Shown: positions 15,659 to 58,182, counted from the first letter of the stretch. The stretch is DNA of 64,000 nucleotides from an uncultured Methanosarcinales archaeon (GCA_964647565.1 CAZYIM010000001.1:40328-104327), one strand, 5' to 3'. The notes: generated from the sequence alone by a model not told the origin. Numbers and translations are program-made.

Positions 15659-15712
15659 GAAAGCTTGAAAAAATCACAGTTTTTATAAATCTTTCCCATA
15701 TCTCTTATATTC

Positions 15713-16471
15713 ATGGAAACCGACAAACTTGAATTTGACTTTGTAATTAACCTTCATGAACTGCTTGACAATAAGAATGGTGACGCTGTCAAGGAAGACA
15801 TGCGAAGGGTTGTTGAGACAATACGAGAAAGGGAGCATGGAAACCACATAACCATCAAGTGTATTCTTGAAGTATGTTACCTTACTGATGCTGAGATAGA
15901 GCTTCTATGCAAATGGTGCTTAGAATTGGGCATAGACTTTGTGAAGACATCAACTGGCTTTGGAACTGGAGATATAGATATGCACAAGATCCGCGTAATG
16001 AAAGAATCTGTTGGCGATGAAGCTGAGATCAAAGCTGCTGGCGGAATAGACACCTATGAAGAATTCATGGAAGCAATTGAACTCGGCGCACACAGGATCG
16101 GAGCCAGCAAAGGTGTGAAGCTGGTTGAGATGCATAAAGAACATAAGCACATGGACATGTCTGACAAGCAGTTTGCTTCATATATAGACCACACTTTCTT
16201 ATATCCTGACGGTGAAGCAAATGATATCCAACAAATTGCAAAAGAAGTTGATGAATATGGATTTGCAGCATGCGTATGCAGACCAGAATTTGTAAAGGAT
16301 GCGCTTGTTGTTCTTAAGGACTCAGATGCCAAGATCGGGTCATGCATCGGCTTTTCTGGACTTGTTGCCAAGGACAAGGATGGCAAAACAGGCTTTATGC
16401 GATATAACATCCCAACAGAGCAGAAGATAGCAGAGATCGAGAAGAGCTTCGAGGCCTTGAAAGGATTTTAG
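15713..16471 (+). CDS. deoC: Deoxyribose-phosphate aldolase, circularly permuted
   Basis: EFDFVIN, KCILE, DFVKTSTGF, IKAAGGI and RIGAS come first; the normally N-terminal ASYIDHT...YGFAACVCRP...CIGF segment follows. Confidence 0.85.
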   Translation: METDKLEFDFVINLHELLDNKNGDAVKEDMRRVVETIREREHGNHITIKCILEVCYLTDAEIELLCKWCLELGIDFVKTSTGFGTGDIDMHKIRVMKESVGDEAEIKAAGGIDTYEEFMEAIELGAHRIGASKGVKLVEMHKEHKHMDMSDKQFASYIDHTFLYPDGEANDIQQIAKEVDEYGFAACVCRPEFVKDALVVLKDSDAKIGSCIGFSGLVAKDKDGKTGFMRYNIPTEQKIAEIEKSFEALKGF

Positions 16472-16719: not shown

Positions 16720-17994
16720 TTGGAAAAGATCATAGATGACCCAAGAAGCGGTAAGATCAAAAAGAGAAAGAAGACCCAGATCACAGATATAAACTCAGCA
16801 CCTTCAGTTACGCGGTCAAAAAAAGGATTTTCAGAAGGAGGGCAACTTCTAAACTATATTGAACATATTGAAAAAAGCCTAGATAATCTGATATTTGAAT
16901 ATGGTTCGAATTCAATCCAGTTCCACATGCATGCCCAGATGTTGAATGTTTTCCAAGCCCAAAAAACCTTGTTCCAACAGTATGGAACCTCTAATTCCAA
17001 AGATTATATGCCAATTATGAGATCTGGTTTACCATCTGTAGACGCATTGAACTCAAATCTTGAAAAAATATGTCGGTTAACAAGAAAAAATCCGGATTTC
17101 AAGATCATTGCCGCCAGGATGAAAAAAGGCCTCACTGGAAAAAACAAAGGCAAGAGCAAGCACATCTACACTCTCGTATCAGAAAATGATTTTAATCTTG
17201 AATTTGAAAACTTCAAGGGTTTCGAACTGCTTTCTCAAAAAGGATTTCAACTAAGCCAGACAGAAAAAGGAGAACTAGTTCTTGATTTCAAAGAAGATAT
17301 CTTTGTAGATGCTCCTGATGAGATCTCGAAGAAATTCCCTGCATTGATACGTGAAGGAAAAGTAACATACAAGATGGCATGGAAGAAACTAATCGATGAA
17401 TTCGAAGTCTCTTATTTCTTGCCTAATACATCATTAGTGCTCCAGGAAAACACTATTGAATCTGAAGAGAAAAATTTCGATGATATTTGCAGGACATACA
17501 AATTCAGGTCAAGTCATTATAATATGTATATACCTCCTTTCTCTTATTGGAGTCCAAAGATGATAAATTATGCTAAATTCTTGGCTTCTGGCCAAAGGGC
17601 AAGGATGGCAAGCACAACAGATATTCTCAATAAATTGTCAGAGACATATGAGCAAAAAGTGGTTTTAAAAGATGTTAAAGAAGAAGCAATGAATGATATT
17701 CTTAAATTTTCTGACGTGCCCTTTGAAAATGCACCTGAGACCGCTCCGAGTGCCAAAGAACTAAAAGAACTGAATATTTCCACTAAATTTGATTTAATGC
17801 TGGAATCTGGCAGTATAAACATCGGAACTCTGGATTTCACATTACCCGGAGTTTACCAAGTATCTGCTTATATAGGAACTGTTAGTAGGTTTCTAAAAGG
17901 CCATATGAGTCTAAAAATCTTCGGCGGTAGTGTTGGAAATGAAACCCAATATAAAACTCTTCAAAAATCACTAAAAACAGTAAAAATGAGATGA
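16720..17994 (+). CDS. Divergent type I phosphoribosyltransferase (UPRTase-like) with a large internal insertion
   Basis: MPIMRSGLPSVDAL resembles UPRT VPILRAGLGMMDG. DLMLESGSINIGTLDF resembles DPMLATGGSVIATIDL. The C-terminal strand-helix-strand order also matches. Confidence 0.55.
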   Translation: MEKIIDDPRSGKIKKRKKTQITDINSAPSVTRSKKGFSEGGQLLNYIEHIEKSLDNLIFEYGSNSIQFHMHAQMLNVFQAQKTLFQQYGTSNSKDYMPIMRSGLPSVDALNSNLEKICRLTRKNPDFKIIAARMKKGLTGKNKGKSKHIYTLVSENDFNLEFENFKGFELLSQKGFQLSQTEKGELVLDFKEDIFVDAPDEISKKFPALIREGKVTYKMAWKKLIDEFEVSYFLPNTSLVLQENTIESEEKNFDDICRTYKFRSSHYNMYIPPFSYWSPKMINYAKFLASGQRARMASTTDILNKLSETYEQKVVLKDVKEEAMNDILKFSDVPFENAPETAPSAKELKELNISTKFDLMLESGSINIGTLDFTLPGVYQVSAYIGTVSRFLKGHMSLKIFGGSVGNETQYKTLQKSLKTVKMR

Positions 17995-18745: not shown

Positions 18746-19702
18746 ATGACACTATTTCCAGATTATTATGAACCATATCGAAAAGCTGGCTTTTCATTCG
18801 AAGAGTACCAGGAGATTGAACAAAAATCCATGTGGGAAGCCCTGAAAGTAAAGAGGCAGATGGATAAGGAGAACGAAGAAAGAAGAGTAAAGCTGATTGC
18901 CAGCTACACACCGCAGAAGCTCTTCAAGGAGTTCCTCTCCTTCCAAAAGAAGTTCGAGGAGAATGACCGAAGGAATTTCTGGTATAAGAGCGATGGTGAT
19001 AAAAAAGCACCAAAGAGATTCAAATTGCGAGGGCCTAGAAAGGTAGTCCGAAAAACCCCTAAAGAGAAGGTATTCAATGGAAAATTGCTTATGCAGAAGA
19101 TCCGAGACGGGATTGATACAGTTGTAAGTCCTGTTGAATCCACTATCAGCAGCGGTGTTGATAAGATCAAAAGGGACAACCTTTCAAAGCAGATGAATGC
19201 CTATCTTGCTGACAAATTCGACATCCATCCATACAGCTGGGACGAGCTTCCTGATAAGGCAAAAGAGGATTTTGAACTGAATGGATCATCAGGGTACAAT
19301 CCCTTAGTCATACCATTGCACAAGGGAGAGGACTATGTGCATATGCAGTTCATGGCCAATCTTGACTATCATGAATGGCACTTCTTTGATTTCAAGGGTG
19401 TTGATCATATGCTTTGTTTCCTTGATAGTAAGGATATAGTAAGAAGGACTCATGTGCTCATGGATATTGACCATGCAATGGATGATGATTATCTCTTAGA
19501 TCTAGGTTCTAAGATACAGTCTTATTTTCTGGAGAACAGGAAAAAAGAGCTAAGGGATGCTGTGCTGATTCCGATCAAAGCACATCATATCGAAATCCAG
19601 GAAGCTTTTAGTCTCAAACCTGAAGAAAAGCGAAAAAGAAGAGCAAAGGGAAAGATAGTGACAGTAGATTACAGGTTTGTTGATCCTAAGACTGTAAAGT
19701 AA
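18746..19702 (+). CDS. Hypothetical protein
   Basis: 318-aa ORF with charged N-terminal helices; no family recognised. Confidence 0.65.
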   Translation: MTLFPDYYEPYRKAGFSFEEYQEIEQKSMWEALKVKRQMDKENEERRVKLIASYTPQKLFKEFLSFQKKFEENDRRNFWYKSDGDKKAPKRFKLRGPRKVVRKTPKEKVFNGKLLMQKIRDGIDTVVSPVESTISSGVDKIKRDNLSKQMNAYLADKFDIHPYSWDELPDKAKEDFELNGSSGYNPLVIPLHKGEDYVHMQFMANLDYHEWHFFDFKGVDHMLCFLDSKDIVRRTHVLMDIDHAMDDDYLLDLGSKIQSYFLENRKKELRDAVLIPIKAHHIEIQEAFSLKPEEKRKRRAKGKIVTVDYRFVDPKTVK

Positions 19703-57399: not shown

Positions 57400-58182
57400 C
57401 TAAATCTCCTTTAACAACAGCTCTTCAGCAAGATGCAAGATGAACCTTAGGCTGTCCTTGAGCTTCTTTGTGTGCCACTTGGGAGCCCACTCCAACTCTG
57501 CGATGATGTCGCTGATGGCAAAGACAGAAGCCAATTCTACTTTGCGGTATTTTGCAACTGCAAACAATGCAGAAGCCTCCATCTCAACAGTAAGCACTCC
57601 ATCTTTTTTATACTGCAGCGTCTCATCAATAGTCTCCCTGTAAGGCGCATCTATTGTCCAACTGGTACCGCAGATGAACTTTTTCTTTTTTTCTTTTAGA
57701 AGTGTTTTTACTTTTTCAGTGAACTCTTTATCAGGAAACGCATATTTAGAAGGCTTGATATAGTGGTAAGAGGTCCCTTCATCTCTAATTGCTCTTTCAC
57801 AGACAATGATATCACCTGCCTTCAGATTGGATTGAAGGCCGCCAGCAGCACCAATGGACATGAACTTTTTCACACCTAAAGCAATGAACTCTTCAAATAC
57901 TGCAGACGCAACAGGAGCACCAATACCAAACCTGCCAACCGCAGCAATCTTTTTCCTTCTGCCTGGAAGATAACAAACTGTCGCACCAAATGCCTTGGTC
58001 TTCTTCACGCCCTTGAGTTTGCATATGTAGTTCATCAGGTTCCTGTCATAGCAAAGGATGACAGCTTCAGGAACCTTTAACAAGGCAAGTCTCAGGTCTA
58101 TCTTCTTGTAATAGTTGACAAACTGTTTAGGCTCCAGAGTAGATTTTTTCAGATGTTTATCCTTGAAGTTTGGATACGCCAT
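57400..58182 (-). CDS. Nucleoside phosphorylase (uridine phosphorylase family)
   Basis: GIGAP, IGAAGG, AIRDEGTSYHY, WTIDAPYRET, VEMEASA. Confidence 0.9.
   Translation of the reverse strand: MAYPNFKDKHLKKSTLEPKQFVNYYKKIDLRLALLKVPEAVILCYDRNLMNYICKLKGVKKTKAFGATVCYLPGRRKKIAAVGRFGIGAPVASAVFEEFIALGVKKFMSIGAAGGLQSNLKAGDIIVCERAIRDEGTSYHYIKPSKYAFPDKEFTEKVKTLLKEKKKKFICGTSWTIDAPYRETIDETLQYKKDGVLTVEMEASALFAVAKYRKVELASVFAISDIIAELEWAPKWHTKKLKDSLRFILHLAEELLLKEI

Follow-up and report, generated by a model that had tools for sequence, protein, structure and literature searches.

2-Deoxyribose-5-phosphate aldolase (DERA, the product of deoC), a textbook example of a class I aldolase, serves in industry as a biocatalyst for making statin side chains and nucleoside analogues. 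Circular permutation is rare in nature, and most of the cases inferred for TIM barrels relate families that diverged long ago. The catalytic (β/α)8 barrel of the GH70 glucansucrases is permuted with respect to that of the GH13 α-amylases, with the catalytic residues retained; these are large multidomain proteins of another superfamily with another chemistry, and no aldolase is involved. In the class I aldolase superfamily, transaldolase is a circular permutant with respect to FBP aldolase (PMC2213659, citing Nagano et al. 2002). The pair shares with the protein described here the natural permutation of a Schiff-base (β/α)8 barrel and an alignment shifted by whole units, but the two families diverged anciently, catalyse different reactions, are shifted by two units and reveal their relationship only by structure. 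The permuted DERA lies within one family, has about 40% identity to unpermuted members and is shifted by three units; both states can therefore be compared directly. No report of a permuted DERA was found in a full-text literature search, which misses many subscription journals. The family and its chemistry are already known; what is new is a conserved chain topology with a clade-specific loop.

The window, the whole stretch of 64,000 nucleotides analysed here, corresponds to C1:40328-104327 of a metagenome-assembled genome (MAG; G000). An earlier note, made from the sequence alone, had read one of its genes as a naturally circularly permuted DERA and had taken the organism for a member of DPANN, and the genome is indeed assigned as Woesearchaeota-type. 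We consider it very likely that the gene (Table 1) encodes a real and functional DERA-type aldolase, circularly permuted and of single origin in DPANN archaea.

Table 1. The permuted DERA gene, its parts and its flanking signals; positions are counted from the first nucleotide of the window
Feature	Position	Strand	Evidence
Permuted DERA gene, complete (252 aa + TAG stop)	15713..16471	+	ORF; TIGR00126; PDB DERA matches in swapped order; AF2 model
aa 1-143, β4-α4 to β8-α8, canonical C-terminal ~60%	15713..16141	+	Matches 3ngj 110-235
Codon of K78, predicted Schiff-base Lys	15944..15946	+	K invariant in FVKTSTG, 63/63 aligned sequences
Linker, aa 144-156, old C-terminal tail + old N-terminal head	16142..16180	+	Least conserved segment; spacing
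aa 157-214, β1-α1, β2-α2, β3, canonical N-terminal part	16181..16354	+	3ngj 23-88, 5dbu 6-67
β3-α3 loop insert, aa 215-234 (SGLVAKDKDGKTGFMRYNIP), replacing GFPxG loop	16355..16414	+	Alignment; spacing; pLDDT 92-96
Helix α3, aa 235-252, now C-terminal element	16415..16468	+	AF2 helix 235-247; K238 invariant
TATA-like archaeal box TTTTTATAAA, 24-33 nt upstream of ATG	15680..15689	+	Read from sequence
T-rich tract TTTATTTTTTCTTT, directly after stop codon	16473..16486	+	Read from sequence

The collinear order from β1 to β8 of a canonical DERA is absent from the window protein and is rotated instead. The full set of β/α units is present, each once, in one polypeptide, cyclically rotated and with the ancestral termini joined. 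The rotation amounts to three β/α units and puts the new termini between α3 and β4; permuted chains begin at β4, 2-9 residues ahead of the catalytic Asp. The motifs quoted in the earlier note are located at residues 7-13 (EFDFVIN), 128-132 (RIGAS) and 155-161 (ASYIDHT), with KCILE at K49, KTSTG at K78 and KAAGG at K107. Residues 1-143 carry D9, K49, K78 (in FVKTSTG), K107 (in KAAGG) and RIGAS, and residues 157-214 carry IDHT, CVCRP (with R190 in place of the canonical N) and IGF. The chain stops where a canonical DERA would go on into β4.

Comparison of each half with DERA by phmmer against all PDB chains shows the swapped coordinates that the sequence had suggested: each short DERA is matched by two significant stretches whose order is reversed. 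For 3ngj, query residues 6-138 match chain residues 110-235 (90.6 bits) and query residues 150-215 match 23-88 (27.3 bits); for 5dbu, residues 7-138 match 90-214 and residues 154-215 match 6-67. The C-terminal segment, which the earlier note placed on DeoC residues ~1-85, therefore aligns to DERA residues ~6-88. The identity of the window protein to canonical short DERAs is 41-45% in each half. The NCBIfam equivalog for deoC, TIGR00126, gives 146.1 bits (cut-off 117.3) as the sum of two non-collinear stretches, and Pfam DeoC (PF01791) gives 32.3 bits (cut-off 23.8) in a partial match of residues 30-134 to profile positions 110-219. At the DNA level, TIGR00126 positions 86-210 (C1:56058-56453) precede positions 2-63 (C1:56499-56684). 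Upstream of the ATG the open frame is only 8 codons longer (260 versus 252 aa), so there is no hidden canonical N-terminus. M147 and M149 were considered as a relic or internal start codon and rejected, since neither is conserved among the other permuted members.

The TATA-like box, if it acts as a promoter, would give a leaderless or short-leader transcript starting from the permuted N-terminus. A/T boxes 25-35 nt upstream of the permuted start are also found at three other loci (L014, L015 and L009), with a weaker one at L017. The T-rich tract is likely to be an archaeal transcription terminator. A scan for σ70 promoters and intrinsic terminators performed no better than on shuffled sequence and was set aside, as a σ70 model is not meaningful for an archaeon.

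The structure of the window protein was predicted with AF2 from an alignment of six permuted members and 57 canonical DERAs, of which the canonical ones cover only residues 1-145. The model has a mean pLDDT of 96.0 and a pTM of 0.92, with pLDDT 86 for the block 141-150. Strands at residues 6-11, 47-51, 76-78, 105-109, 128-131, 158-161, 186-189 and 207-212 alternate with helices, and the chain order is β4α4-β5α5-β6α6-β7α7-β8α8-linker(144-150)-α0-β1α1-β2α2-β3-[insert 213-234]-α3. A second model, of a 232-aa member with 37% identity and the shortest insert, has the same topology (pLDDT 96.5, pTM 0.93), with β4 starting from residue 2. The permuted proteins are thus predicted to form a complete closed (β/α)8 barrel, which is the outcome of the AlphaFold modelling that the earlier note had proposed. 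Foldseek against the PDB returned only DERAs as top matches (3ngj, 8qps, 5dbu, 5h91, 6d33, 1mzh, 1j2w and 3r12). These superpose at 1.5-2.5 Å RMSD, but the alignments comprise no more than 129-145 columns, about half of the model (TM ~0.48), as would be expected when an order-dependent aligner is applied to a permuted barrel. No solved structure in the PDB matched the whole chain at low RMSD in this search. Together, the two-stretch matches to PDB chains and TIGR00126 and the AF2 topology bear out the proposal of a barrel cut between α3 and β4 with its old termini religated in one reading frame.

A chimeric join or a collapsed tandem repeat could mimic a permuted ORF, and the window does come from a MAG of 86 contigs. 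The earlier note had itself pointed to the junction as the place where a misassembly would lie. The identical protein, with the same neighbours, is present on JGI 3300009374 Ga0118720_1003545 (18.7 kb) and on ENA ERZ23499040 SUTE22-1_SAMN10231904 scaffold_14647 (4.7 kb). The JGI contig is 100% identical to the window over 6.8 kb (0 nt differences) and the ENA scaffold 99.98% over 4.7 kb (1 nt difference); the three assemblies sample essentially one population. Diverged collinear homologues from at least seven other independent sources are decisive; with the separate assemblies that reproduce the junction, they argue that it is real and not a misassembly. Composition is unbroken between the two halves of the gene, which have equal GC and GC3 (0.425) and similar divergence, and promoter-like and terminator-like signals stand at the ends of the ORF. 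We regard the probability of an assembly artefact as practically negligible.

The genome has a size of 2.68 Mb, with 87% completeness and 1.9% contamination. This is unusually large for a Woesearchaeota-type genome, as more than 400 genomes of the same order span 0.6-2.1 Mb. Downstream of the aldolase, two window ORFs have no Pfam match (16720-17994 (+), 424 aa, and 18746-19702 (+), 318 aa); the 424-aa ORF is found in all three assemblies of the locus. ARAGORN reports tRNA-??? genes of 85-98 nt with four-base 'anticodons' at C1:106831-106928, C8:10028-10115 and C26:36385-36469, which are probably intron-containing archaeal tRNAs that were mis-parsed.

The earlier note had described the catalytic residues as intact in the window protein, and they are invariant across the permuted clade. 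The invariant positions are D9, N13, K49, I51, E53, C55, K78-T-S-T-G, K107, G110-G111, G130, S132, D159-H160, R190-P191, G213-F214, L217, K220, Y231 and K238. The Lys of the Schiff-base motif on β6 (F-[VI]-K-T-S-T-G) does not vary in any of the 63 aligned sequences, nor in any of the 11 permuted ones. In the window protein it is K78, which we take to be the equivalent of K167 in E. coli DERA from the alignment range and the established DERA literature. The Asp on β4 in E-x-D-x-V-I-N (D9), the Lys on β7 in K-[AS]-[AS]-G-G (K107) and the Lys on β5 in K-x-I-x-E (K49), residues whose functional roles are known from work on E. coli DERA, are all invariant, and so are the residues of the phosphate-binding loops, GG after β7 (G110, G111) and [RK]-[IL]-G-x-S after β8 (G130, S132).

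The identity of the homologues to the window protein is 34-45% in the β4-β8 half, 22-36% in the β1-β3 part, 26-43% in the insert with α3 and 8-46% in the linker. Of these segments the linker is for the most part the one with the lowest conservation, as one would expect if the protein is functional and its linker passive. The His-rich linker (HKEHKHMD) to which the earlier note drew attention is present, but it is specific to this species; the linkers of the other members are unrelated to it. Given the presumed origin by duplication and truncation, a non-functional remnant of a tandem deoC duplication, in decay but still with an open frame, would look superficially the same. Such a remnant is highly improbable here. 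Homologues at 32-42% identity keep the catalytic residues, the open frame and exactly eight β/α units, none doubled or missing; the permuted gene is the sole DERA in each genome; and the AF2 confidence is very high.

The canonical short DERAs (TIGR00126; 3ngj, 5dbu, 8qps, 3r12 and 1j2w) have in common with the permuted form the Asp/Lys/Lys set, FVKTSTG, the GG and IGxS loops and the eight β/α units, and in the aligned half they superpose on the model at 1.5-2 Å. They differ in that the permuted form is rotated and has its old termini covalently joined, which makes a free C-terminal tail impossible. A further difference is located in the β3-α3 loop. The earlier note had described the GFP.G loop as replaced by a longer insert; this is real in the window protein (GFSG with 14 extra residues), but it is a hallmark of the whole clade. 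Of 210 canonical DERAs, 195 have GFPxG; of 14 permuted ones, none has it. The Pro of GFP is never present in the permuted clade, which has G-F-x-x-L-x-x-K-D…R-Y-[ND] instead, with an insert of 10-23 aa. The spacing from GFP to ExD is 25 residues in 153 of 156 canonical DERAs; in the permuted clade the equivalent spacing takes in the insert, α3 and both termini and amounts to 32-55. In CVxP, the residue ahead of the Pro, most commonly N in canonical DERAs, is always R in the permuted clade (CVNP to CVRP). The changes in the loop and at CVRP sit on the catalytic (C-terminal) face of the barrel, beside the new C-terminal helix. They may stabilise the now-terminal α3 or may modify the entrance to the active site.

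The earlier note had suggested looking for the same permutation in other DPANN, and diverged collinear homologues were found, with three other DPANN genomes among their sources. When 401 genomes of the same order were surveyed, G331 (40%, query 2-250) and G307 (32%, query 5-242) gave full-length collinear matches, and a normal-order DERA was present in about 20 other genomes. A phylum-level sample of 401 genomes gave no further permuted copy and a normal-order DERA in 22 genomes. An exhaustive HMMER search of 1.84 billion representative proteins yielded 4,957 DERA-like proteins. Among the best 150 of these, P0121, P0122, P0123, P0126 and P0127 (232-257 aa) match the window protein in a single full-length stretch at 35-42% identity. 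Assemblies from JGI, ENA, Logan and NCBI all contributed permuted homologues. The G331 protein is MBI3032972.1, from a "Candidatus Woesearchaeota" MAG, and one of the clusters includes MFQ6009560.1, from a "Candidatus Aenigmatarchaeota" MAG; both phyla lie within Nanobdellati (DPANN). NCBI names both proteins "hypothetical protein" (their loci are L009 and L014, respectively), whereas the normal-order DPANN DERAs are correctly named. G000, G331, G307 and the Aenigmatarchaeota-labelled G596 contain no DERA homologue other than the permuted gene.

The permuted clade is rare, with at least about six clusters at 50% identity. Two motif searches were also made. The universal motifs D[FY]VKTSTG and ExDFVxN, applied to 186k species genomes, gave among the matches listed 80 loci that are all canonical, and hold no information on distribution. 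The insert-motif pattern, which does recover L009, L013 and L019, gave a single locus in a metagenome collection, a chance match without a DERA, and this shows rarity or absence in that collection only. One normal-order DPANN DERA (L011 1602-2465 (+), on G394:C3; 287 aa) contains several large inserts; they include a stretch rich in His and Asp (HNSEDHSDKDHHK) that follows β2, and an acidic insert that precedes RIGAS.

For phylogenetic analysis, each permuted sequence was un-permuted in silico by cutting it 8 residues before DHT and rejoining the pieces in canonical order, and the resulting sequences were placed in an alignment that also contained 70 canonical DERAs and several from DPANN. The permuted sequences group in a single clade (SH-aLRT 99), whether all 14 are used or the 8 without near-duplicates, which argues that the permutation arose once. 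The window protein is the earliest and longest branch of this clade. A normal-order protein from a Nanoarchaeia MAG, named DERA (MDD5417897.1, G584; L021 818-1525 (-), on G584:C33), is a candidate for an unpermuted sister lineage, both being on long branches. The AU test does not reject the tree that groups it with the permuted clade (p-AU 0.82), and the likelihood of this tree is 37.9 units better than the result of a quick free search. The G584 protein and the permuted clade have in common the HTNL and CVRPE motifs, and the G584 protein likewise has an insert, placed after GFP. They differ in that the G584 protein has the canonical N-to-C order, keeps the Pro of GFP and has an insert of unrelated sequence.

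The permutation would have arisen once, in a DPANN archaeal ancestor, where it would have replaced the canonical gene. The most likely route would lead from a tandem duplication through in-frame fusion to loss of the outer parts. The permutation goes together with a remodelled β3-α3 loop, in which GFPxG is lost and a conserved insert is present. If the gene arose by duplication, fusion and truncation, its linker should be made up of the former C-terminal tail followed by the former N-terminal head. Canonical DERAs (186 sequences) have a median of 11 residues ahead of DHT and of 14 behind IGxS; the two segments add up to a median of 25 (IQR 21-30). The distance from IGxS to DHT is 21-28 aa in the permuted clade and 26 in the window protein, in agreement with this expectation. 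No tandem or fused DERA-DERA intermediate was found among the best 150 of the 4,957 representatives, and we therefore infer the duplication route from linker length only. That absence would also suit fission of the gene into two pieces that were later fused again in swapped order. We consider this decidedly unlikely, as no split DERA genes were found in ~800 DPANN genomes and the linker keeps the full length of the old tail and head, a specific signature of head-to-tail fusion of complete copies.

Two proteins were considered as possible duplication or fusion intermediates and rejected. P0124 (355 aa, three stretches) proved to be a DERA of normal order in which an internal segment is repeated exactly. 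The repeat is in frame and comprises ~130 residues, so that β2 to α6 are doubled; it reflects either an artefact of assembly or a partial tandem duplication that occurred very recently. P0201 (505 aa) is a DERA with an unrelated C-terminal extension.

Despite the rotated chain, barrel and active site are predicted to be as in an ordinary DERA. Lys78 would form the Schiff base, assisted by Asp9 and Lys107, and the GG and IGxS loops would bind the phosphate. Since the catalytic residues are all kept and the predicted barrel is ordinary, the reaction, as deduced from the sequence, is most likely the reversible cleavage of 2-deoxyribose 5-phosphate (dR5P) to glyceraldehyde 3-phosphate and acetaldehyde. 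The best reading of its role would be salvage or catabolism of nucleosides and deoxynucleosides. Each of the three genomes tested encodes nucleoside phosphorylases of the PNP/UDP family. Four are present in G000, and one of these lies in the window (57496-57945 (-); PNP_UDP_1 family, 110.7 bits). G331 and G307 also encode a DeoA/AMP-phosphorylase-like protein and PGM/PMM-type mutases, and G307 encodes RuBisCO. In G000, which is 87% complete, no DeoA-type phosphorylase and no RuBisCO were found, and the match to a PGM/PMM-type mutase is sub-threshold.

No conserved operon with nucleoside metabolism was seen in the lineages examined, as the neighbours differ in every one: HAD and cupin, PhoU and radical SAM, CorA and GTPase, or ThyA. 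Neighbours so unlike one another argue against functional linkage. At L017 (766-1614 (-)) the permuted gene is convergent with the gene for thymidylate synthase (ThyA) and slightly overlaps it; this is the only neighbour tied to deoxynucleotide metabolism.

Because of the differences on the catalytic face (no GFPxG, an insert with K220 and Y231, and N to R at 190), the substrate could have shifted. The protein would then be a real, folded class I aldolase whose substrate or role has changed and for which dR5P is not the primary substrate, and the insert (K220, Y231) with R190 would make a new lid or binding element on that face. The constant absence of GFPxG, the new invariant residues L217, K220, Y231 and R190, the long branch of the window protein and the lack of clear DeoA and phosphopentomutase partners in G000 would fit such a change. 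However, all residues for DERA chemistry and phosphate binding are invariant, the gene is the sole DERA in four genomes that encode nucleoside phosphorylases, and the normal-order G584 protein, named DERA, already has CVRPE and a loop insert. A changed substrate is thus unlikely, and cleavage of dR5P remains the preferred reading.

The permutation may in addition be an adaptation with a mechanistic coupling to the remodelled β3-α3 loop, whose insert would be a replacement lid or proton shuttle; this is speculative and we would not expect it to hold. In some DERAs a Tyr of the C-terminal tail is delivered to the active site, and a terminal Tyr is present in 33 of the 210 canonical sequences. 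If the coupling is true, joining the termini removes the free tail and the insert with K220 and Y231 substitutes for it. Altered substrate scope, aldehyde tolerance or oligomerisation would be expected, and the protein would be a naturally re-engineered scaffold for which the G584 protein is a built-in control.

The permuted DERAs are a clean natural system for the tolerance of a barrel to moved termini, one of which is located 2-9 residues from a catalytic Asp, and they show which compensating changes are needed. The linker, which still shows the old termini, and the candidate normal-order sister allow the model of duplication, fusion and truncation to be tested. As NCBI files these proteins as "hypothetical protein", metabolic reconstructions of DPANN archaea would wrongly count DERA as absent from the lineages concerned.
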